Translations under genes and position numbers: made by a program
Shown: positions 1 to 13,148 of the stretch, piece by piece
Layout: each line of letters begins with the position of its first letter
Position numbering within the stretch: position 1 is the stretch's first letter
Notes under the pieces: model-generated
Databases searched by the model: none
What the model was told of the DNA's origin: nothing
Seen by the model: only the letters and a program-made list of their open reading frames with translations
Assembly (NCBI GenBank): GCA_964417765.1
Contig: CAYQIX010000002.1
Span: forward strand, 1-45,209
Source of the DNA: an uncultured Desulfurococcaceae archaeon
Lineage (GTDB): Archaea > Thermoproteota > Thermoprotei_A > Sulfolobales > NBVN01
DNA: 45,209 bases
Direction of reading: 5' to 3'

Positions 1-1496
1 CTATCGAGAAGCAGCACGCTAGGGGGAAGCTAACCGCTAGGGAGAGGATAGATCTCCTTGTCGACCCCAACTCCTTCATAGAGGTTGACATGTTCGTCAG
101 GCACAGGGCTACTGAGTTCGGCATGGAGAAGAGGTTTGCATATGGTGATGGAGTAGTTACTGGGCTAGCTACAGTAGCTGGTAGAAGGGTTGTTGTTATA
201 GCTCAGGACTTCACTTTCATGGGTGGCTCACTCGGTGAGATGCACGCAGCTAAGATAGTTAAGGCAATGAGCTACGCACTAAGCGCTGGAGTACCTGTTA
301 TATTCCTAAATGACTCAGGAGGTGCTAGAATTCAGGAAGGTGTTGACTCACTTAAGGGGTACGGAGACATATTCTACATGAATGTAATGGCTTCAGGCGT
401 CATACCTCAGATAGCAGCTATCATGGGTCCATGCGCTGGAGGAGCTGTCTACTCCCCCGCCTTAATGGACTTCATAATCATGGTTAAAGGCACATCATTC
501 ATGTTTATTACAGGCCCTAGAGTCGTTAAGGCAGCTATAGGAGAGGTAGTTAATGAACAGCAGCTAGGCGGTGCTGAGGTCCACGCTACTAAGTCAGGTA
601 TGGCTCACTTCATAGCTAATAACGATGAGGAGGCTGTAAGAATAATTAAGAAGCTCCTGTCGTACCTACCCAGCAACAATGCTGAGGACCCGCCAGCAGT
701 TAAGACAGGCGACCCGCCAGATAGGGCTGACCCTGAGCTGAACGCCATAGTGCCTGAAGACCCTAACCAGGCTTACGACATGAAGGAGGTAATTAAGAGA
801 GTGCTAGATAAGGACACATTCTTCGAGATCCACGAACTCTGGGCTCGGAACGCCATAGTCGGGTTCGGCAGGCTTAATGGCAGGGTGGTAGGTGTCGTAG
901 CTAATCAGCCAGCCTACCTCGCTGGAGTACTCGACATCGACTCATCAGATAAGATTGCCTCATTCGTTAGGTTCTGCGACGCCTTCAACATACCAATAAT
1001 AACCTTCGTTGACGTGCCGGGCTACCTCCCCGGCACCAGGCAGGAGCACGGTGGCATAATAAGGCATGGAGCTAAGGTTCTCTACGCCTACTCAGAAGCT
1101 ACAGTACCTAAGCTAACAGTAATTACTAGGAAGGCGTACGGCGGCGCATACATAGCTATGGGCTCTAAGCACTTAGGTGCTGACTTCGTGATAGCTTGGC
1201 CAACAGCCGAGATAGCTGTCATGGGTCCTGAGGGTGCAGCTCAGATAATTTGGAGGAAAGAGCTAGCAGCAGCTAAGAGTGACGAGGAAAAGAAGAAGCT
1301 ACTTGAGAAGTTCGTGCAGGAGTACAGAGAGAAGGTAGCCAACCCGTACGTAGCTGCAGGCAGGGGCTACATAGACGCTGTGATAGAGCCTAAGGAGACG
1401 AGACCTACATTAATTAAGGCCTTAGAGTACCTACTAAGCAAGAGAGAAACGAGGGTGTGGGTACCGCCTAAGAAGCACGGGCTAATGCCCGTGTAA
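1..1496 (+). CDS. Acyl-CoA carboxyltransferase subunit (propionyl-CoA carboxylase beta / methylmalonyl-CoA decarboxylase alpha family); 5' end cut by window edge
   Basis: The ORF-track start at 90 is internal. The same frame is open back to nt 3 and reads IEKQHARGKLTARERIDLLVDPNSFIEVD, the conserved N-terminal block of this family. Family-typical blocks occur throughout (GGARIQEG, GPCAGGAVYSPA, ITRKAYGGAYIAMG). The TAA stop overlaps the next start (TAATG). Confidence 0.9.
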   Translation, partial: IEKQHARGKLTARERIDLLVDPNSFIEVDMFVRHRATEFGMEKRFAYGDGVVTGLATVAGRRVVVIAQDFTFMGGSLGEMHAAKIVKAMSYALSAGVPVIFLNDSGGARIQEGVDSLKGYGDIFYMNVMASGVIPQIAAIMGPCAGGAVYSPALMDFIIMVKGTSFMFITGPRVVKAAIGEVVNEQQLGGAEVHATKSGMAHFIANNDEEAVRIIKKLLSYLPSNNAEDPPAVKTGDPPDRADPELNAIVPEDPNQAYDMKEVIKRVLDKDTFFEIHELWARNAIVGFGRLNGRVVGVVANQPAYLAGVLDIDSSDKIASFVRFCDAFNIPIITFVDVPGYLPGTRQEHGGIIRHGAKVLYAYSEATVPKLTVITRKAYGGAYIAMGSKHLGADFVIAWPTAEIAVMGPEGAAQIIWRKELAAAKSDEEKKKLLEKFVQEYREKVANPYVAAGRGYIDAVIEPKETRPTLIKALEYLLSKRETRVWVPPKKHGLMPV

Positions 1497-1795
1497 TGGG
1501 GGTGGTTGAGACGCCCCTACTCAAGAGGAGGATACGGTTCAAGAAGATAGAAAAGAAGAAAGTGGAGGTAGATACGAGTAAAGTAGCTGCAGCTGCTGCA
1601 GCTGTAAGCATCCACGAGACCCTGCAAGAGTACGCTGCGGCTGCAGTGGCAGCTATAGAGATACACGAAACCCTCAAGGCAGTTCCTGCGCAACAGGCGG
1701 CTGCCCCACTAACAGCTATCTCCTCATGGGTTGCTTCCTGGAGGCTTGAAGCTTCCACACACCTGTGTAAGAGGGGGAGGATTAAGTCATGGTAA
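1496..1795 (+). CDS. Small Ala-rich protein between carboxyltransferase and BCCP; possible small accessory subunit of the biotin enzyme
   Basis: The start overlaps the upstream stop (TAATG) and its stop overlaps the BCCP start (ATGGTAA), so three genes are translationally coupled. It carries an internal peptide repeat, AAAAAAVSIHETLQEY / AAAAVAAIEIHETLKAV. I recognise no family. Confidence 0.5.
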   Translation: MGVVETPLLKRRIRFKKIEKKKVEVDTSKVAAAAAAVSIHETLQEYAAAAVAAIEIHETLKAVPAQQAAAPLTAISSWVASWRLEASTHLCKRGRIKSW

Positions 1796-2235
1796 AGTAC
1801 AAGGTTAGGATAAAGGATAAAGAGTACACAGTTGAAATAAAGGAGAAGAGAGGCAACACCTACATAGTCAGCGTTGACGGTGAGGTTTTCGAGGTAATCG
1901 CAGAGGAAGCACCAGCTGAGGCTGCCGCACCAGCTGCAGCCCCGCAGGCAGCTCCAGCAGCCGCTCCTGCACCAGCGGCTGCGCCGACCCCAGCACCTAA
2001 GCCAGCGCCTGCACCAGTTACCGGCAAGACAGTTACTGCACCTGCGCCAGGCAAGATACTTGAGGTTAAGGTAAAGCCCGGAGATAGGGTTACAGAGAAC
2101 ACCGTTATCGCTGTCATGGAGTCCATGAAGATGACCATGGAGATCTACGCAGGGTACTCAGGCATAGTTAGGGAAGTTAGGGTAAATCCGGGTGACTTCG
2201 TAGAGTTAGGTCAGGTGATTGCCGTCATCGAGTAA
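1789..2235 (+). CDS. Biotin carboxyl carrier protein (biotinyl/lipoyl domain)
   Basis: Biotinylation motif VMESMKM, a long Ala/Pro linker (APAEAAAPAAAPQAAPAAAPAPAAAPTPAPKPAPAP), and a C-terminal biotinyl-domain pattern GDxV..GQ.IAVIE. Confidence 0.92.
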   Translation: MVKYKVRIKDKEYTVEIKEKRGNTYIVSVDGEVFEVIAEEAPAEAAAPAAAPQAAPAAAPAPAAAPTPAPKPAPAPVTGKTVTAPAPGKILEVKVKPGDRVTENTVIAVMESMKMTMEIYAGYSGIVREVRVNPGDFVELGQVIAVIE

Positions 2236-4484: not shown

Positions 4485-5471
4485 CTAGTCAAGCTTAAGC
4501 ACGTCCTTAAGGAACGCCTTGTACTTACTTATTGATTTCGTCACCCTCGGGTCAATACCTAGCTCGAGAGCCAGCTTAACTGAGGCGATACCAACCACCT
4601 GAGACCACTTAAGTATATCTCCTATGTAATCACTGCCCTCCACTTCAAATTCCTTAACTGGGACACCAGAGTCCCTGAGGTGCTCGGCAACGAACTTCAT
4701 CAATTCATTACCTGCCTCCCTAAACACTACAGCGGCTATTGGCTCCTTCCAACCTTCCCAGCCTACGACATCATTGTGTCCCCACTCCGGCACAACCTCT
4801 GCCTTAGCAAGTACTTTAGTGTTCTCATTGAATTCATTCTTAGCCCTCACGGCTAGTGGGTAGTACTTCGTGCTTGCAATAAAGAATGGTATCCTGCCCG
4901 CTACCGCCCTAATAACTTCCTCAGCTAATACCTCAGCACCCTTAACATCTCTTAGTACTTCAATAGAACTTCTGAGTCCCTCATAGAGCTTGAGCCCTAG
5001 CACGCTAAGCAACTTGAGCGTACTCAGGAGTAGAGCTGGAAATGCTGACCGTGGAGCGTACCCGCTCTCAACCTGAACACGAGGCAGGTCCTTGCTAACA
5101 GCTAGTTCAGTTAACTTGCCTCCAGAAGCTACAGTAGCTACTTTAACCCCCCTCTTGAGGCCTTCCTTAACAGCTAGTAGCGTCTCGAGCGTATTTCCAG
5201 AGTAGCTGACCGCGATCATCAGCCAGCCGCTCCTAATCCACTTCGGCAGCGTGAAGTCCTTGACCACAGTTACTGGAATGTCCAGCCTGTCTATAGAGAG
5301 TGTATACATTACGTCGCCTACTATGCCTGAACCCCCCATGCCAACAACTACTAACCCATCATACGGCGGCTCCCACAACCTACCCTCAACTTCACGCTCT
5401 AGCGCCTCAGCTGCTTGACTAAACCAGTTAAGGTACATGCTCAGGAACTCACTCACATATGCCACCCACAC
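4485..5471 (-). CDS. Bifunctional phosphoglucose/phosphomannose isomerase (SIS domain)
   Basis: VVGMGGSGIVGDV and VSYSGNTLETL blocks. The ~330 aa size is typical of archaeal PGI/PMI. Confidence 0.8.
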   Translation of the reverse strand: MWVAYVSEFLSMYLNWFSQAAEALEREVEGRLWEPPYDGLVVVGMGGSGIVGDVMYTLSIDRLDIPVTVVKDFTLPKWIRSGWLMIAVSYSGNTLETLLAVKEGLKRGVKVATVASGGKLTELAVSKDLPRVQVESGYAPRSAFPALLLSTLKLLSVLGLKLYEGLRSSIEVLRDVKGAEVLAEEVIRAVAGRIPFFIASTKYYPLAVRAKNEFNENTKVLAKAEVVPEWGHNDVVGWEGWKEPIAAVVFREAGNELMKFVAEHLRDSGVPVKEFEVEGSDYIGDILKWSQVVGIASVKLALELGIDPRVTKSISKYKAFLKDVLKLD

Positions 5472-5537
5472 ATATATGACTGTAGAAACTGAAATTACTT
5501 ACGGATGACCCTCAGAGACATGCCAACAGTACATTAC

Positions 5538-5918
5538 TTAACTTTTAAACCACTTCTTAGCCTTATCTCTCAGGACCTTAACCGAGTAGGTAATGAACTC
5601 TGCCTTATCACCATTAATTAATGCCTCAATAGCTCTCCTGCCGTCCTCACCACCTGCCTCTGCTAGAGGCTTAAGGAGATACCTCACGAACCTCTGCGTC
5701 GTGTCTTGATTCCTGAAATACATGTTCAGTACATCAACGAAGCCCTTAGGATTTCTCACTAGCAACTCAGTTACATAGACTCCGTACATCTTCATAGCTA
5801 GCGAATTAAGAGCTATCAGCATACCTGGAGCACCCTTTCTTAACCTGTCCTCAGCTAAGTACTTCATGTATGCTAGAACAATTTTTGTATCAATATCTTC
5901 ACTTATTTCATCATTCAT
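5538..5918 (-). CDS. Hypothetical small helical protein, partner 1 of the KaiC-like ATPase
   Basis: ATGA overlap with the stop of the upstream ATPase gene. Shares the motif block E-[LI]-L-[VI]-x-N-P-[KR]-x-F-V with ORF 7459..7950. No family recognised. Confidence 0.65.
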   Translation of the reverse strand: MNDEISEDIDTKIVLAYMKYLAEDRLRKGAPGMLIALNSLAMKMYGVYVTELLVRNPKGFVDVLNMYFRNQDTTQRFVRYLLKPLAEAGGEDGRRAIEALINGDKAEFITYSVKVLRDKAKKWFKS

Positions 5919-7300
5919 TGACTCTTTACCACCTCTATTTGGAACTTACCACCTTCACCATACTGTACGTAAATGGGCTTCACATTACTTGTGACCGTTA
6001 TGGGATGAGGTTCTAAGTACAGGTACAATCTTCCGTCCTTCCATTTAGGTCTTACTTTAATGATAAGATCATATATGTCAAGAGGTATTGGTATATCGTC
6101 ATCAGACTTAACGTTATATATGTAGAACGTTGTAATTCCTAGTTTTCTCCTGAGCAGGAGATTGTTTAGGTGCTCTCTGAAGAAGTCGTCCCAGTCGTTG
6201 TTGTGAACCATTGGAACCTGCTGTAAAGAGTCAAATACAAGAAATGTTGGATTTATCCTGGTATCTGCTTCCCTGTTATATTGAGACATTACGTACAGCG
6301 GCTTTGCTGTTGGGTTTACTGAGTCTATTATAATCTTAGACAGCTCCACACCAAACTTCTTAGCATGCGCTTTAACTATCTGCCTTATAAGTTGCGGCGG
6401 TTTTGAGTACGTCCTTATCATGAGGGTTCCGCCGTACTTAGCTATATACCCTAGTATCCACCAAATAAGCAGCGGCAGAATTGAAGCTGGCTCTCTAACT
6501 ATAAATGCTATCTGTGAGCCTTTCCTAAGGTATCCACCACATAAATATCCGATTTCTTTAGCGTGAGGTACGTAGATTTGTGCCTCACTGGGTGCAGGTA
6601 TCTCCTCCATTCTAGGAGGTAAGTACACCTTTATTCCAGCACCAGGTGAGATGTCAAAGTACAGCTCCGCGTACGGTATAGATGTGCCTCTCATTTTCCT
6701 AATTTCCATTTTTCTAACTAAGACACCATTCTCTATCGTAGACTTCAGTATTATTACACCATCAACAAGGAATTCCTCAACTCCGTAACCAACCGAGGGA
6801 GTTCCAATAGGCAGCTCAGATATTAGTATTCCTGTAATACCTAGTGGTTTGAGGCCATTCACCATAGCGTTCTTTATTAATTCTCTCGTCAATCTGAAGC
6901 CAGCTACTTGAGTTATAGCTGTGGCTGAATCCATGACCACTCTTTTTGCGTTTAACTTGACTATAGCGTCCATGAACTCCTTTAGAGCATCCTCAATGCC
7001 CTCAAAAGTTGATGTTTGTATTCCCTCTATATAATACACTAATCCTCTCCTCTCTAATTCCTCAAAGTCCATACCTAAGGCACGCATAAATCTGTAGAAA
7101 TCATTTTTTGGTTCTAAGAAGCTCAGATATACTCCAGGTTCGCCAAATCTCCTAGCTCCCTCATATATGAATTTAGCTGATAGCGTTGTTTTTCCAGCAC
7201 CTGGATGTCCTGCAACCAGTATTATATCGCCACGTGGAAATCCGCCATTCAGGAGCTCATCAAGCTCATCAATGCCTGTCGGGCACATCTCTATGCTCAT
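5915..7300 (-). CDS. KaiC-like / RecA-superfamily ATPase, two domains (second degenerate)
   Basis: N-terminus reads CPTGIDELDELLNGGFPRGDIILVAGHPGAGKTTLSAKFIYEG (Walker A), with RVVMDSATAI as Walker B. The C-terminal half has a RecA-like length but no P-loop. GGAGGAG lies 4 nt upstream of the ATG. Confidence 0.85.
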   Translation of the reverse strand: MSIEMCPTGIDELDELLNGGFPRGDIILVAGHPGAGKTTLSAKFIYEGARRFGEPGVYLSFLEPKNDFYRFMRALGMDFEELERRGLVYYIEGIQTSTFEGIEDALKEFMDAIVKLNAKRVVMDSATAITQVAGFRLTRELIKNAMVNGLKPLGITGILISELPIGTPSVGYGVEEFLVDGVIILKSTIENGVLVRKMEIRKMRGTSIPYAELYFDISPGAGIKVYLPPRMEEIPAPSEAQIYVPHAKEIGYLCGGYLRKGSQIAFIVREPASILPLLIWWILGYIAKYGGTLMIRTYSKPPQLIRQIVKAHAKKFGVELSKIIIDSVNPTAKPLYVMSQYNREADTRINPTFLVFDSLQQVPMVHNNDWDDFFREHLNNLLLRRKLGITTFYIYNVKSDDDIPIPLDIYDLIIKVRPKWKDGRLYLYLEPHPITVTSNVKPIYVQYGEGGKFQIEVVKSQ

Positions 7301-7458
7301 CCGCTCCTCCCTAAAATAAAATCAAAGCCTCCTTATTATTAATATTCTTTCACTAACGCTAAAATTATCTATAATGACATGTTAATAGCGTTCAGTGACT
7401 GATTGACTCAACTATATATCCTTTCCTCGAAACCCCCATTAAAGTATTTTTTTAAGTC

Positions 7459-7950
7459 CTACTTCTTAGTACTAACGTTATTTGTTATTCGAGTAAAGTA
7501 CTTTGCTTTAGTGCTAATTATTACGCTAATTACTTTCTTAATGAATTTTGTCAATTCATCCGAATCGATTATATCAGGGGGTTCCTCATTAATTCCAGTC
7601 ATGTATGACAAGACCTTAAATACTTCATGCAGAATCCTCTCCGTAGGTGAAGATAAAACACGCTCAAATGCTGTCACAAAGTCTCTTGGATTATTAATTA
7701 GTATTTCCGCAGGACTCATGCCTGTTAGTCTTTTGATGGCTTCAGTTATTTCGTAAGCTTTATGGACACCTAATACACGGCTCAAGCTCTCACAGATTAA
7801 GCTGTCCAGTTCAGTCATAATGACACAGCTGTCGTAATTGCTATCTATGAGTCTCATGTTATTAAGTAACTCAGTTAATGGAGACTTTTCTTCTTTGAAT
7901 ATGTTTCTCAATTTGTTCCTTAATTCATCTTTATCTCCTTGCTTAATCAC
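7459..7950 (-). CDS. Hypothetical small helical protein, partner 2 (divergent paralog of 5538..5918)
   Basis: PAEILINNPRDFVTAFERVL aligns with VTELLVRNPKGFVDVLNMYF of the 126-aa protein. Normal protein-like composition, unlike the overlapping + strand ORF. Confidence 0.6.
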   Translation of the reverse strand: MIKQGDKDELRNKLRNIFKEEKSPLTELLNNMRLIDSNYDSCVIMTELDSLICESLSRVLGVHKAYEITEAIKRLTGMSPAEILINNPRDFVTAFERVLSSPTERILHEVFKVLSYMTGINEEPPDIIDSDELTKFIKKVISVIISTKAKYFTRITNNVSTKK

Positions 7951-8365
7951 ATTGCATCCCGCGCGAGTACTTATAGGTGTTGCATTTGCAGCTCTTCATT
8001 CCGTATTAAACTACTTCTTACCCAATATTTAAAAATGACTCCGAACCATTACTAACGCGCTTGATGCTGGTGCAGGCTAATTCTTTTTATACTCATTCTA
8101 AACAGATATCAAAATCTAGATGCATGTACTGCGTGGCTGACTTCCAATCTCATCCTTGAATATTTAAGGAGGTTCTGCTGAGCTTCAGCTGTAGTCAGCT
8201 TGCAGCTAATTTCACTCCAATATTTAGCGCGTATAGACAGTTATGATTGACGTAATGCAAGACAAGTATATATTTAGTACGAGCTTGCTAAATGCCTAAG
8301 GTTAGAGGGAATATGGAGACAATTAAAAGTTTTATTGCCAGATTCTCACTTAGTGGTGATGTAAC

Positions 8366-9001
8366 TTGGGGAATATAGATCTCATTGACTTAGTTTATAA
8401 GTTCAGGAAGGAGGAGAAAGAACAGCATCAGCGGGCTGAGGGAGTCTACTGGGTGACGGATCTGACTAGGTGTCCGCTTAAGAGGGTGTATGAGCTGAAG
8501 TACCCTGAGCTGGTTGCTAAGGATGTGTTCTCGCCTTCGTTCATAATGGGCGACCTCGCTCACAGAGGTATCGAGTCACTTATTAAGGAGTTCTTTCTTG
8601 ATGCGGCATCGATTGAGGTTGAGGGTTCTAGAGAAGTCGTGCTCCCGAATAGCCAGAAAGTCACAATTAAGGGTAGGGCAGACGCCATAATAGACCTTGG
8701 GGAGGGGGTCAAGGTAGGTGTGGAGGTTAAGACAGCTAGAGCTGACGTAGGGATACCTCAGCCTCACCACATAGATCAAGTAAGGATATATAACTGGCTC
8801 TTTAACCTCAAGTACAGCATACTATTCTATGTAACCCCTGACAGAGTGACGCAGTATGAGGTTAGCGATAAAGTGAGTGAGGAGGAGATTATTGAGAGGC
8901 TAACATCAACAACGTATCCGAGGTATTCCTGGGAGTGCTCTTACTGCCCATTCTCAGTACTGTGCCCACATAAGAAGACCGCAAATGAAAAGTATAGGTA
9001 A
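8366..9001 (+). CDS. Cas4-family (DUF83) PD-(D/E)XK nuclease with 4-Cys cluster; orphan, no CRISPR nearby
   Basis: N-terminal Cys context VTDLTRCPLKRVYEL, motif II GRADAII, motif III VEVKT, QxxxY (HIDQVRIY), and C-terminal CSYCPFSVLC (CX2CX5C). TTG start. Confidence 0.8.
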   Translation: MGNIDLIDLVYKFRKEEKEQHQRAEGVYWVTDLTRCPLKRVYELKYPELVAKDVFSPSFIMGDLAHRGIESLIKEFFLDAASIEVEGSREVVLPNSQKVTIKGRADAIIDLGEGVKVGVEVKTARADVGIPQPHHIDQVRIYNWLFNLKYSILFYVTPDRVTQYEVSDKVSEEEIIERLTSTTYPRYSWECSYCPFSVLCPHKKTANEKYR

Positions 9002-9023
9002 GAGCAGCCGCCTCTAGCTACAT

Positions 9024-9881
9024 CTAGCTCTGATATAGCAGTACTCTGTACGCTACTTTAGTTAGCCAGCGCCTGACCCCTCTGCTGAGCCCGTTCTTAA
9101 TTCCGAAGCCTTTTACACCAACGTACAGGTTTAGAGGTAATCCGGCTAAGCTCTTAGCTAACCTAACAGCACTAGGACCTTCAACCCCGTACTTCCTAGC
9201 TAGGTGGGCCATTAACCTAATGTCACCCATGGCTGGTAGCAGCCACGGGTTGTAGTGTGTTACGCCTGCTTTAACTATCTTAACCTTGAATCCCCTCTTC
9301 AAAACATGATTAAGTATGTACCAATCTTCAAATACGTGTAGGTCCTGCGGTATCTGCAGGTTCTTAAGCACGTACCTTCTAATCATGGTGTCGTGGGTGC
9401 CCCCACGCCTGTAGAACTCTCTAATTAGGTAATTTACGTAGTTAACACCTAGGAGTTTAAGCCACATGATCCTCTCCTTGTAGCCGTCGTAGTTCAGCCC
9501 CCAGATGAGCCCTACGTCACTTTCCTTGACGTAGGAACTAGCTTCCTCCCACCAGCCAGGATTCACGATCACATCATCATCAACAAACATTAGCCACTCT
9601 TCACTGAAGTTACTCACGAATTTACTTATGGATAACTGCCTCGCTATTGCTCTATTTCCTGCTCCCTTATAGATCAATACCTCCTTATTATTTGCTGAGC
9701 ACCAGTTAGCTATTACTTCAGGTGTCTCATCTATGGAATCGTCAACGAGAATTAGTGACTTAAAAGGTATCTGAAGGACCGAGTTGAGTACATCAACAAG
9801 CGTGATTGGGGTATGCTTCAGCTTGCTGCATGAATTCCTCGTTATTAATGAAAGCACCACCAATATTTCAACCCCCAGCAA
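9024..9881 (-). CDS. Glycosyltransferase family 2
   Basis: GT-A pattern: LILVDDSIDETPEVI and DxD-like FVDDDV. Overlaps the upstream GT2 gene by 14 nt. Confidence 0.65.
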   Translation of the reverse strand: MLGVEILVVLSLITRNSCSKLKHTPITLVDVLNSVLQIPFKSLILVDDSIDETPEVIANWCSANNKEVLIYKGAGNRAIARQLSISKFVSNFSEEWLMFVDDDVIVNPGWWEEASSYVKESDVGLIWGLNYDGYKERIMWLKLLGVNYVNYLIREFYRRGGTHDTMIRRYVLKNLQIPQDLHVFEDWYILNHVLKRGFKVKIVKAGVTHYNPWLLPAMGDIRLMAHLARKYGVEGPSAVRLAKSLAGLPLNLYVGVKGFGIKNGLSRGVRRWLTKVAYRVLLYQS

Positions 9882-10902
9882 TTCCTCGAACGTGCTTTGC
9901 CAGCCTATGCAGAAGTGAGCAATGGTTAACTACTAACCCTAAGTCAATTACATCCCCCTCAACGACACTAACACGCTTAGTTACTGCGCGCTGACGGATA
10001 ATGTATCTTAAATTCTTAAACAAGTCACACACAGCTAGTAATTTAGCCGACCCAGTCCCTACCCTGCCAACTACTAGGTCACGCAGGAATGTTGCAAAAA
10101 GAAACACCACAAGAGGAAGGAAGTACTTAATGAGATTAGTCAACTTGTAGTTCTTAAGCATGAAGGTCAGCCTACCTCTAACCATGTAGAAGTATCTTGA
10201 ATGTTCCTGCAAACACCTCCGTCTTAATTCCCTCCTAGCGTGGACTACCTTACTCTCAGGCGCCAGCACTACAGAGTAGCCAGCCTTCCAAACTCTGAAA
10301 GCAAGGTCAGCTTCTTCGTAACCAAAGAAGTAGTATGGGTCGAACATCCCTACTTTCATGAATACCTCCCTTTTAACAGCCATACCTCCGCCTGTTGCGT
10401 AGGGTATTCTGCAGAACTTCTCGCGACAGTTAACTCCATTAAGTTCTAGCACGCCGCCGTATACGTCGATAACGTAAATAACTGCAGGCCCCTCTCCCAT
10501 TACACCGTCGTGTACAGCGCTCTGGCACATACCAACCTTACTGTCAGCTAAGGCACAGAGAATAGGGTCCAGCCACCCTTCACGTACTTCAGCGTCGGAG
10601 TCAATGAAGTAGAGTACTTCACTTGACGCCATCGCTGCTCCTAAGTTCCTTCCTAAAGCTACACCGACATTATGCGGAAGCGTAATTACTTTGGTGTCCT
10701 TATTGTAGATAAGGGCAAACCTCAGAGCTATCTTTGTAATCTTGTCTGTCGATCCTTGATCAACTATGATTAGCTCTAAGTCGTCATTACTTGCTTCAAG
10801 AATCGATTCTATGCAGTTAAATAGATTGTCACCATCGTTGCACGTTACGATTATTACTGACGCCCTAGGCTTGCTAGTTCCTACTTTACTCAATGTAGTC
10901 AA
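9868..10902 (-). CDS. Glycosyltransferase family 2
   Basis: SVIIVTCNDGDNLFNCIESI, IIVDQGSTD, YFIDSDA (DxD) and GGGMAVKREVF. Confidence 0.8.
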   Translation of the reverse strand: MTTLSKVGTSKPRASVIIVTCNDGDNLFNCIESILEASNDDLELIIVDQGSTDKITKIALRFALIYNKDTKVITLPHNVGVALGRNLGAAMASSEVLYFIDSDAEVREGWLDPILCALADSKVGMCQSAVHDGVMGEGPAVIYVIDVYGGVLELNGVNCREKFCRIPYATGGGMAVKREVFMKVGMFDPYYFFGYEEADLAFRVWKAGYSVVLAPESKVVHARRELRRRCLQEHSRYFYMVRGRLTFMLKNYKLTNLIKYFLPLVVFLFATFLRDLVVGRVGTGSAKLLAVCDLFKNLRYIIRQRAVTKRVSVVEGDVIDLGLVVNHCSLLHRLAKHVRGIAGG

Positions 10903-11770
10903 TCCTCCCTAGCGCAATTTGAGCTAACTCACTTAAAGTAACGTATAGTACTCTGAACCTACTGGTTAGTTCCTTGAGGAAAGACCTTAACCTCAGTATA
11001 TTAACTTCGTTTAGGCCGTCCTCTAAGTACTCACTGCCGTAAGAGTCCGTGATGTGGCCGTAGGCTGTGACTACCCCATACCTTCTCGCAAGCTTAATTC
11101 CTTTCTCGATACTGTCGCTGCCGATATTCCAATTTGGCGGAATGTTAATTACTTCGTGTACTACCTCAGGAACTAAGTTTAAGCTCCTGCAAGACATAAA
11201 GTAGCCCAGCTTCTTAAGAGCTTCAAGAAGCTCATAACTCACTCCCCACCCAGGAGGCCTGAATACCTTACTGAACCTTAAGCCAGCTCGCTTAAATACT
11301 GCCTCACTAGACATCAACTTACTTACGCACTCACCGTAGCTTAAGTCACTAAATTCTGAGGAGTGGTTTACTCTCACATCAATTCCTGAGTAGTGGTGAG
11401 TGAAGCCATGTACACCAACCTCGAATACCCCTCTATCAACGTATTCATTTAGCCAGTTACACCACTCCACATGCTTATCTAACCTGAATGGACTGCCGCT
11501 CCAGGTATTTCTTATTGATAACTTAAGACACTTCTTAACTAGCCTTTTAAATCCAGCATCATTAGGTCTATCTATCCAGTTTGGTGTCACAAATAGCGTG
11601 ACCTTGAGGTTGGGGTAATCGCCAAGTAAGTCCACTACATACCCGAGCTTGCCGTTCTCCTTATCACCTCCGCAGTCACCCAAGTACTTGCTTGTCTCCG
11701 GATGAACATCATCAATGCTTAAATTGAATAAAACGTAGTCACTTCCTACTCTAACATCCTCACTAATCAT
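10886..11770 (-). CDS. Polysaccharide-deacetylase-like protein (DUF2334-like)
   Basis: LSIDDVHPE and HGFTHH blocks resemble the DUF2334/NodB-like deacetylase fold. 17-nt overlap with the downstream GT2 gene. Confidence 0.5.
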   Translation of the reverse strand: MISEDVRVGSDYVLFNLSIDDVHPETSKYLGDCGGDKENGKLGYVVDLLGDYPNLKVTLFVTPNWIDRPNDAGFKRLVKKCLKLSIRNTWSGSPFRLDKHVEWCNWLNEYVDRGVFEVGVHGFTHHYSGIDVRVNHSSEFSDLSYGECVSKLMSSEAVFKRAGLRFSKVFRPPGWGVSYELLEALKKLGYFMSCRSLNLVPEVVHEVINIPPNWNIGSDSIEKGIKLARRYGVVTAYGHITDSYGSEYLEDGLNEVNILRLRSFLKELTSRFRVLYVTLSELAQIALGRIDYIE

Positions 11771-11897
11771 AAATAGCCCTTACAAACAGTGGTATAGTTG
11801 AACATACATAAACTTTATGAACTTTAGATATCTCTAATTAGTAACTTTTCAGCTCCCTCGCCTGAGCTGCGCCTAGTCTTAATATCGATGCTGCCTG

Positions 11898-12200
11898 CTA
11901 CCTTCCCTCACTAACGTCCTCCATTAACTTCCTTAGCATCTTCCTCCTTTTCCTCAGCTCCTCAACGCTGTGCTTAATTATCTCTATGAGGTACCCCTCC
12001 TCCCCTGGAACCCCATATCCTACTATCTCACCATCTACTCTCAGCATTGGGTACTCATTATCTCCAGTAGCCTCGGTTACGTAGACCTCCTCACCAATCT
12101 CGCGCTCAATTATGTCTTTAATCTCGTAGAGCCACTGCTTAACTGTGTACACCCAGTATGAATCCCTCCTACCTACGATCTCTATCGTCACCATCCCCAA
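11898..12200 (-). CDS. Small thioredoxin-fold-like protein lacking redox cysteines
   Basis: The beta-alpha-beta pattern VTIEIVG...YPMLRVDGEIVGYGVPGEEG mirrors small archaeal Trx-like proteins (cis-Pro before beta3, DG..V..G.P). SYWV sits where CxxC is expected. Confidence 0.4.
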   Translation of the reverse strand: MGMVTIEIVGRRDSYWVYTVKQWLYEIKDIIEREIGEEVYVTEATGDNEYPMLRVDGEIVGYGVPGEEGYLIEIIKHSVEELRKRRKMLRKLMEDVSEGR

Positions 12201-12245
12201 ACTCCAATCCCGTCTCTACTTCATTGTTAATAAAGTGATTTATAG

Positions 12246-13148
12246 GTGAGCGCGAAAAGTGTCTCTTGTAAGGTGTTTAATGACTTGCTTGCTGCTGCAA
12301 AGTACCTCCTAGATGGCGCTAAGTACATCAAGATATACGTAATTGCCTTTGTAGTAGTAGCTGCTGTCGCAGTAACTGTAGCTGCCCTCTACCCTACACC
12401 TCCTATCCCCCCAGGTGCTGAAGGACTTCTGAGGAATGAAACCGTGAAGGTCAGTGCTGAGGAGGTAGCTGAGTGGATTATTGAGAGTACCTTAGTCCTA
12501 GAGGTTAGGCAGCTACTCCTCATATGTGTTCAAGCCTTAGCTACAGGAGTACCGATGTACCTCGTTATCAAGAACTTAGACATAGGTGCTAGGTACCTAG
12601 GTGAATTATCACTACGTAGGATAGGTACATTGATAATTGCATCTCTTATATGTACTGCATCAATAACTGCTGGAGCTGCTGCTACTATAGGTGCTAACCT
12701 AAGTCAGGCGGCAGGAGAAGTTACTGCAGCTGTTCGTGAGGTTACTGCATATGTGACTACCTTGGATGAGCTTAGCAGAGCTGTTAATGCAGGTGTGGAA
12801 GTACTGTACTCGCTTCCTTACGTCAGACTAGCGTATGTGGTGGCTGCAGCCTCAGCTCTTCTAATAGGGTGTGTCATGGCTGTTACCTACGTAAGAATTA
12901 GAGATGCCTTGCTGCCGAGGTACTGTAGGTTGATAGCAGCCCTATTCTTGGTAGAGGCAGTCTACAGCTTCTTCAGGAGTTTAAGTGCAGTAATTCCTGA
13001 GGTAGGTCTCATTCCTCTAGGAGCTGGAGACCCTATAGTAATGGTTGTTGCTGCGTTCAGACTCCTCACTCAGTGGGTTAACGCTAAGGACATAGAGTCT
13101 ATAGCTAGAGCGTTAGTTAAAAGAAGGAGTATGAAACGTGAAAGGTAA
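12246..13148 (+). CDS. Hypothetical integral membrane protein
   Basis: Several long hydrophobic segments. GTG start. No family recognised. Confidence 0.55.
   Translation: MSAKSVSCKVFNDLLAAAKYLLDGAKYIKIYVIAFVVVAAVAVTVAALYPTPPIPPGAEGLLRNETVKVSAEEVAEWIIESTLVLEVRQLLLICVQALATGVPMYLVIKNLDIGARYLGELSLRRIGTLIIASLICTASITAGAAATIGANLSQAAGEVTAAVREVTAYVTTLDELSRAVNAGVEVLYSLPYVRLAYVVAAASALLIGCVMAVTYVRIRDALLPRYCRLIAALFLVEAVYSFFRSLSAVIPEVGLIPLGAGDPIVMVVAAFRLLTQWVNAKDIESIARALVKRRSMKRER

Follow-up and report, generated by a model that had tools for sequence, protein, structure and literature searches.

In Thermoproteales, the type IV pilus loci of clade 4B contain a single secretion ATPase, PilA pilins and two TadC genes, and a KaiC-like ATPase (arCOG01174) is paired there with an alpha-helical "DEATH-like" protein (arCOG03758) that has been suggested to replace KaiB (Makarova, Koonin & Albers 2016, PMC4858521). 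The core of this pilus was listed without the KaiC and helical proteins, and KaiC was regarded as a regulator (PMC4858521). A later account proposes KaiC-like ATPases as general signalling hubs and mentions archaeal "Death domain-like" adaptors of such hubs (Galperin et al. 2018, PMC5847659, citing Makarova et al. 2017), and in Haloferax the archaellum genes are under the control of a KaiC-like protein, CirA (PMC10983859). Here we describe a locus of this kind at positions 5538-7950 of a 45,209-nt stretch of contig CAYQIX010000002.1 (GCA_964417765.1) from an uncultured Desulfurococcaceae archaeon. This whole stretch is referred to below as the window. In the locus, the gene of a two-domain KaiC-like ATPase is bracketed by the genes of two small, related proteins of 163 and 126 amino acids (aa), which we call the upstream and downstream partners. 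We think it fairly probable that the three genes encode a regulatory module of Thermoprotei archaea, consisting of an ATPase with one active and one inactivated KaiC domain (KaiC + iKaiC) and two helical adaptors, with a type IV pilus as its probable ancestral target.

The initial annotation of the locus regarded it as an undescribed module, a view that does not stand because the pairing of a KaiC-like ATPase with a helical protein was already reported (PMC4858521); its broader frame, a KaiC-like signalling hub with small partners, was the right one. The cassette type had been predicted by genome comparisons, and the present locus is a divergent, sub-threshold example rather than a new kind of system. 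Like the clade 4B pair, it joins a KaiC-family ATPase directly to a small all-helical protein. This likeness is one of description and not of arCOG assignment, and neither arCOG01174 nor arCOG03758 was found in the examined supplements of PMC4858521. Unlike that single pair, two paralogous helical proteins bracket the ATPase here, and no pilus genes are adjacent in the window or in five other lineages. The ATPase resembles cyanobacterial KaiC in its double RecA-like domains and in having small partner proteins encoded alongside, but its second domain has no Walker A motif and its partners are unrelated to KaiA and KaiB, being all-helical with the fold of PH0832. ArlH (FlaH) and CirA of Haloferax volcanii are likewise KaiC-like P-loop proteins; they are encoded with type IV filament machinery and affect its assembly or expression, and helical paralog partners have not been reported for the two in the literature examined. 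ArlH is, moreover, a single-domain protein of the archaellum motor, whereas the window ATPase has two domains and no archaellum genes nearby.

Organization of the locus and domains of the ATPase

The features of the locus and its immediate surroundings are listed in Table 1. The three same-strand ORFs, the Walker motifs and the ATGA overlap given in the initial annotation were all borne out at their positions. As sequence readings in an archaeal host, the ATG of the 126-aa ORF and the TGA of the ATPase ORF overlap as ATGA, an AT-rich element (ATATTAATAATAAGGAG...TTTAGGGAG) common to the window and to the two close relatives L001 and L005 lies 5' of the ATPase start, and the hexamer TATAAG occurs at 7970-7975, 25 nt 5' of the start codon of the 163-aa gene. 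The element may serve as promoter and ribosome-binding site for a bicistron of the ATPase and 126-aa genes and, because it is kept among close relatives, it suggests that these two genes have a promoter and ribosome-binding site of their own, apart from the 163-aa gene. The TATAAG hexamer could be a TATA box from which a leaderless transcript starts.

Table 1. Features of the KaiC-like locus and its surroundings, in positions of the window
Feature	Position	Strand	Remark
Downstream partner gene	5538..5918	-	ORF of 126 aa
KaiC-like ATPase gene	5915..7300	-	ORF of 461 aa
ATPase C-terminal domain (aa 240-461, "iKaiC")	5918..6583	-	Degenerate KaiC-like domain
ATPase N-terminal domain (aa 1-228)	6617..7300	-	Intact KaiC/RecA-type P-loop domain
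AT-rich element with GGGAGG Shine-Dalgarno-like motif, directly 5' of the ATPase start	7301..7347	-	Sequence reading
Upstream partner gene	7459..7950	-	ORF of 163 aa, GTG start
Intergenic spacer separating the 163-aa gene from the Cas4-like gene (opposite orientation)	7951..8365	.	Divergent
Cas4-like PD-(D/E)XK nuclease gene, stand-alone	8366-9001	+	TIGR00372, 58.7 bits, slightly short of the 65-bit cut-off

The N-terminal half of the ATPase is an intact KaiC domain. Residues 6-227 matched PF06745 (KaiC) with 210.3 bits against a gathering threshold of 26.6 (E 3.4e-62), and in a PDB sequence search the domain aligned to CI and CII alike of solved KaiC structures, with E-values down to 1e-66. 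The catalytic motifs of the KaiC family are all present in it, namely Walker A (GHPGAGKT, aa 31-38, nt 7187-7210), the catalytic Glu, the Walker B Asp (in VVMDS) and the K/R of KxRG. In the alignment of the ATPase family (A3, 31 sequences), G31, G34, G36 and K37 of Walker A, E63, D124 of Walker B and K202/R204 of KMRG are invariant. The catalytic glutamate site reads FLE in the window ATPase, with Leu where cyanobacterial CI has the first glutamate of its pair.

The C-terminal half gave no Pfam match, including any to a P-loop family, and no PDB sequence match. Comparison of its profile with that of the N-terminal half by hhalign nevertheless returned a probability of 99.3% (E 8.4e-21) over 206 columns. 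At the place of the P-loop the window protein reads REPASILP, aligned to GPSGSGKT of the distant members P0038, P0045 and P0058; Walker A of this domain is canonical in these three and in P0068, and near-canonical (GPTGTDKT) in P0054. Because the C-terminal half is homologous to the N-terminal half yet has no Walker A, the ATPase consists of an active KaiC domain and, behind it, a KaiC-like domain that has been inactivated. The initial description as a two-domain KaiC/RecA ATPase was thus correct as to the double domain, but the second domain is inactivated and only the N-terminal half scores as KaiC in Pfam and PDB sequence searches.

Models for specific members of the KaiC family did not accommodate the protein. 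The circadian KaiC models NF006799 and TIGR02655 gave 134.5 bits against a cut-off of 408 and 103.3 bits against 546, respectively, the ArlH model NF052589 gave 55.6 bits against 215, and the ATPase remained far under the cut-offs of the archaeal KaiC equivalogs in NCBIfam. No KaiB-like or thioredoxin-like Pfam match was found in the ten ORFs scanned (4485-13148).

Paralogy and fold of the two partner proteins

The similarity between the two small proteins, aligned by eye in the initial annotation, exceeds chance. BLASTP aligned 83 residues of the two with an E-value of 1e-4, and their Smith-Waterman score of 53 was matched by only 2-3 of 5000 shuffles (p about 5e-4). The shallow profiles A1 and A2 gave an hhalign probability of 13%. 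Word-indexed protein searches with either protein returned close relatives only, and distant members were recovered with local HMMs among the small ORFs that flank ATPase homologs. With the alignments widened to 20 sequences for the 126-aa family (A5) and 10 for the 163-aa family (A6), the probability was 95.3% (E 2.4e-8) over 106 columns, an alignment that takes in almost all of the shorter protein and, in the 163-aa protein, residues 48-155. Furthermore, an HMM built from the 126-aa family alone matched the window 163-aa protein with an E-value of 6.5e-7 among 2833 ORFs, the reciprocal search from the 163-aa family to the 126-aa family also succeeded, and nothing outside the two families fell below E 0.01 in these cross-searches. 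Jackhmmer started from the 163-aa protein reached the 126-aa family in round 2. On these sequence comparisons, the two proteins are judged to be true, divergent paralogs. In public data the adaptor family is very small: an exhaustive HMMER search of 1.84 billion proteins added no more than 11 true representative clusters to the 126-aa family.

AlphaFold2 (AF2) models of the two proteins, with a predicted local distance difference test (pLDDT) of 87 for the 126-aa and 81 for the 163-aa protein, are confident and all-helical, with an identical order of helices. The 126-aa protein is helical throughout and carries "PG(L/M)" and "ELL..NP..F" motifs, and the 163-aa protein has a K/E-rich N-terminal tail of low confidence (about aa 1-37) followed by an all-helical core (about aa 38-161). 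Among 350,542 PDB chains, 2p9x_A was the best match of both models, with a TM-score of 0.75 (target-normalised), an rmsd of 3.1 and a probability of 0.99 for the 126-aa model, and a TM-score of 0.60 with an rmsd of 3.7 for the 163-aa model. The shared best match agrees with the proposal of the initial annotation that one fold is used twice around a single ATPase.

The entry 2p9x is PH0832 of Pyrococcus horikoshii, the aligned fragment of which corresponds to Pfam PF11537 (NitrOD5; 101 bits); we found no mention of PH0832 in the literature. Profile searches are suggestive in the same direction. When PDB sequences were searched with the A5 profile, 2p9x was the best natural protein, at a weak E-value of 0.01 and with the PGL and "dP.kF" motifs aligned; the A1 profile missed it. 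Relatives in both partner families gave subthreshold, in-register NitrOD5 matches (20.1, 17.1, 16.7 and 15.7 bits against a cut-off of 27), and one member of the 163-aa family matched NitrOD5 in register with an E-value of 0.008. Models and profiles taken together, both small proteins are best described as remote, PH0832/NitrOD5-like relatives of PF11537. The initial annotation could place neither of them in a named family, whereas both are placeable near PH0832 and NitrOD5. They differ from these in being longer (126 and 163 aa versus about 95) and in having an extra long C-terminal helix, and none of the members seen here is fused to a REC domain.

The PH0832/NitrOD5 family is the one to which comparative genomics has given the name archaeal "Death domain-like". 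As in the adaptors proposed for KaiC hubs, each partner is a small helical protein genomically linked to a KaiC-like ATPase. However, no DEATH, CARD, DED or PYD structure was present among the Foldseek matches listed (the top 50 of 181 for the 126-aa model and all 34 for the 163-aa model). We therefore keep the placement as PH0832/NitrOD5-like, the label "DEATH-like" not being reproduced by the fold searches.

Conservation, neighbouring genes and base composition

The module is kept well beyond the closest relatives of the window genome. In L001-L008, where the ATPase is about 92% identical, the triad occupies the same slot, flanked by PGI and HMG-CoA reductase at one end and, at the other, by an Asn-synthase-like gene and the Cas4-like gene. 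The full triad was found in five lineages, namely the window group, L040, L042, L047 and L048, the ATPase identity in the latter four being 51% (L040/41), 47%, 44% and 48%, respectively. In all four of these relatives the order is T2SSE ATPase, two T2SSF/TadC genes, upstream partner, ATPase, downstream partner and PGI, and a pilin-like ORF precedes T2SSE in L042, L047 and L048, while the L040 flank starts inside the T2SSE gene. The arrangement repeats the layout of the clade 4B locus (secretion ATPase, two TadC-like genes, pilin, then the module), so that the clade 4B neighbourhood of T2SSE, two TadC genes and pilins is found in L040/41, L042, L047 and L048 but not in the window. One side observation concerns the T2SSE-type pilus ATPase of L047 (1222-3723), which has 833 aa and contains an intein (PF14890, Intein_splicing), its orthologs in L042 and L048 having 515-531 aa.

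Four further lineages have the ATPase and the downstream partner only: L043 (53% identity), L044 (43%), L049 (43%) and L045 (36%). The downstream partner thus lies directly 3' of the ATPase in nine of nine sampled lineages in which the ATPase is at least 36% identical, and also in L050 (34%), and the two frames usually overlap or nearly abut. Because this pair is kept in all lineages of the conserved set and the upstream partner is not, the ATPase and the downstream partner are the invariant core of the module; the upstream paralog is an accessory element that goes together with the pilus operon. L050 has a homolog with two active KaiC domains (34% identity), next to it a 126-like ORF of 108 aa and then a KaiC/iKaiC gene. 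At the loci of Caldisphaera (L046), Ignisphaera (L012) and L013, where ATPase identity is 29-36%, no partner ORF was detectable. A locus search with the narrower alignment A4, based on generic P-loop and KMRG patterns, returned mostly unrelated bacterial and archaeal KaiC genes; its full-length matches were confined to L012-L014, and a 126-like ORF was present only in L014 among these. Tandem KaiC paralogs were seen in the operons of L040 (3128-4477, a 449-aa KaiC gene before the triad) and L050 (7001-10178), which suggests, from gene content, that hetero-oligomeric or cascade arrangements may occur.

The position of the triad behind secretion genes would also fit a different explanation, according to which the proteins are a structural or assembly part of the pilus motor, the KaiC-like ring docking on the secretion ATPase as ArlH does on ArlI and the helical proteins acting as stator or scaffold like ArlX and ArlCDE. 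The triad lies on the same strand as T2SSE and the two T2SSF genes and directly after them in L040, L042, L047 and L048, and the ATPase is weakly similar to ArlH. The ArlH score is, however, far below its cut-off, the module is retained in the window group, L043, L044, L045 and L049 although no pilus genes adjoin it there, and the published account of clade 4B leaves these proteins out of the pilus core and sees KaiC as a regulator (PMC4858521). We consider a role in the motor itself unlikely.

The nearest gene on the other side of the module, the Cas4-like gene, is oriented divergently at a distance of 415 bp from the 163-aa gene and is 91-92% identical in L001 and L005. On this proximity the initial annotation raised a role in DNA processing or defence, exerted jointly with the nuclease, for which the generic P-loop match of the ATPase to PADLOC mad8 (E 6e-9) and similarities of RecA/DnaB type might also be cited. 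The mad8 match, however, covers only the P-loop region (aa 20-120), and no PADLOC or PHROG match was obtained for the small proteins. No CRISPR array is present in the 45-kb window and no other cas gene among the ORFs scanned, nor does the locus match a model specific to a known defence or CRISPR-Cas adaptation system. A gene-neighbourhood survey, the test suggested in the initial annotation, found the ATPase with one or both partners conserved across lineages but the Cas4 neighbour in close relatives only: adjacency is limited to L001 and L005, in which an Asn-synthase-like gene stands between the nuclease gene and the triad, and it is absent from L040-L050, the distant relatives having kept the type IV pilus operon and PGI as neighbours instead. 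The linkage to Cas4 was rejected on these grounds, and we regard a joint function in defence or DNA processing as extremely improbable.

The locus is also distinct in composition, as the initial annotation had noticed. The G+C content of 5538-7950 is 0.398 versus 0.474 +/- 0.014 in windows of the same size elsewhere in the stretch (z = -5.5), a dip beyond the variation of the stretch, and the three module genes have the lowest G+C of the 47 genes in the window. The shift is specific to this genome. At 92-93% protein identity, G+C at third codon positions (GC3) of the ATPase gene is 0.398, versus 0.604 in L001 (8619-10004) and 0.578 in L005 (10683-12068), while the flanking PGI, HMGR and BtpA genes have a G+C content close to that of their orthologs. 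Codon identity at identical residues is 0.50 for the ATPase versus 0.57-0.82 in flanking genes, the NAD synthetase gene coming nearest with 0.57-0.60. The 163-aa gene is the most divergent, with 59-62% protein identity to close relatives. The Asn-synthase-like gene between the upstream partner and Cas4 in L001 (6529-7431) and L005 (8798-9751) is absent in the window; no remnant of it was detectable there, and 7951-8373 could not be aligned to L001 or L005.

These observations could be taken to mean that the AT-rich block arrived recently as a foreign or mobile island, its cargo being unrelated to the physiology of the host. The G+C dip, the low GC3 of the ATPase gene, a synonymous divergence above that of all compared flanking genes (the NAD synthetase gene being only slightly less diverged), the missing AsnS gene and the unalignable spacer would all be in keeping with it. 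Against it, the same three genes occupy the same slot by PGI in relatives down to 44% ATPase identity. No tRNA gene, integrase, Rfam match or CRISPR array was found in the window, flanking repeats are short and at chance level only, the small proteins have no PHROG match and the ATPase gives generic P-loop matches only. Mobile-island and viral-origin readings were both rejected on the lack of tRNA genes, integrase, direct flanking repeats and viral family matches at a chromosomal slot that relatives keep; the "island" of the initial annotation is therefore not a mobile one, and recent acquisition of unrelated cargo is very unlikely. What remains of this explanation is at most the replacement of an orthologous segment by an allele of lower G+C, or local mutational drift. 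The shift at synonymous sites suggests one or the other, allele replacement or a local mutational bias, and the simplest reading of the AT-shifted block is such a replaced segment, or drift, in a variable neighbourhood.

Further along, 9024-11770 (minus strand) holds two family-2 glycosyltransferase genes and a DUF2334/polysaccharide-deacetylase gene, which are present in L005 but not in L001 and L002, where other small genes fill the slot. Because this cluster is present only in some of the close relatives, the stretch from NAD synthetase to the triad is variable among them. At the other end of the window, 90-2235 (plus strand) is an apparent acyl-CoA carboxylase operon. It comprises a carboxyltransferase gene (468 aa), an Ala-rich ORF of 99 aa and the gene of a biotin-carrier-like protein of 148 aa, which has an MKM motif and an Ala/Pro-rich linker. 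A period-12 tandem repeat (1930-1976) and long spurious antisense ORFs are due to this linker.

A possible regulatory function

As a working explanation we favour the regulatory module introduced above, which is probably a nucleotide-driven switch. By analogy with KaiC-KaiB/KaiA and ArlH-ArlI, we infer that the ATPase would act as an oligomeric ring, the nucleotide state of which, possibly together with autophosphorylation, would govern when the two helical adaptors bind and are released. The C-terminal domain without Walker A would probably be a scaffold or docking surface, and the adaptors would relay the state of the ATPase to a target. The downstream adaptor, translationally coupled to the ATPase, would be the obligatory partner, and the upstream adaptor would provide an accessory second input or output. 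Because a type IV pilus operon ends with the triad at its 3' side in four related lineages, the pilus is the probable ancestral target, and the step controlled would have been assembly or expression of the adjacent pilus, the genes of which are no longer adjacent in the window lineage.

Several points weigh against this explanation. Five of the nine lineages (the window group, L043, L044, L045 and L049) have no adjacent pilus genes, and T2SSE and T2SSF genes were not found in the window by tblastn. PGI is a conserved neighbour too, and part of the synteny may be simple inheritance. The structural placement of the adaptors has weaknesses of its own: the AF2 input alignments were shallow (5 and 8 sequences), the Foldseek E-values were weak (0.57 and 2.2) although TM-scores and probability were good for the 126-aa model, and the window proteins reach no Pfam threshold and gave no NitrOD5 match at E <= 0.1. 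Finally, the classical phosphorylation sites of KaiC lie in CII, and because the CII-equivalent domain is degenerate here, no phospho-cycle of exactly the KaiC form is to be expected.

The absence of pilus genes beside the module in five of nine lineages could also suggest a general signalling switch, or a timer-like oscillator with the helical proteins in the place of KaiB and KaiA, that is not tied specifically to pili in this organism, and the published proposals of KaiC-like hubs and of a DEATH-like substitution for KaiB would accommodate it. However, the ATPase falls far short of both circadian KaiC models (134 versus 408 and 103 versus 546 bits), the counterpart of the domain bearing the phospho-sites of cyanobacterial KaiC is degenerate, neither KaiA nor KaiB is present in the scanned ORFs, and the pilus operon is the only non-housekeeping neighbour that recurs across lineages. 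We consider a pilus-independent switch or oscillator of this sort improbable. A more specific form of the regulatory module can also be envisaged, namely a self-contained three-component switch on the logic of KaiABC, in which the two paralogs would bind opposite nucleotide or phospho states and thereby gate the assembly of a crenarchaeal type IV pilus post-translationally. We offer this version tentatively and regard it as rather doubtful; if true, it would give the proposed archaeal signalling by KaiC and "Death-like" adaptors its first mechanistic example.

Signalling by KaiC-like ATPases and helical adaptors has been proposed to be of major importance in archaea, and to our knowledge no adaptor pair has been experimentally characterised. 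To this picture the locus adds a compact example in which two clearly paralogous adaptors surround one ATPase, a structural anchor for both adaptors in PH0832 (2p9x), and a plausible target in sister lineages, the clade 4B-type pilus operon. It is a reasonable candidate for biochemical reconstitution.

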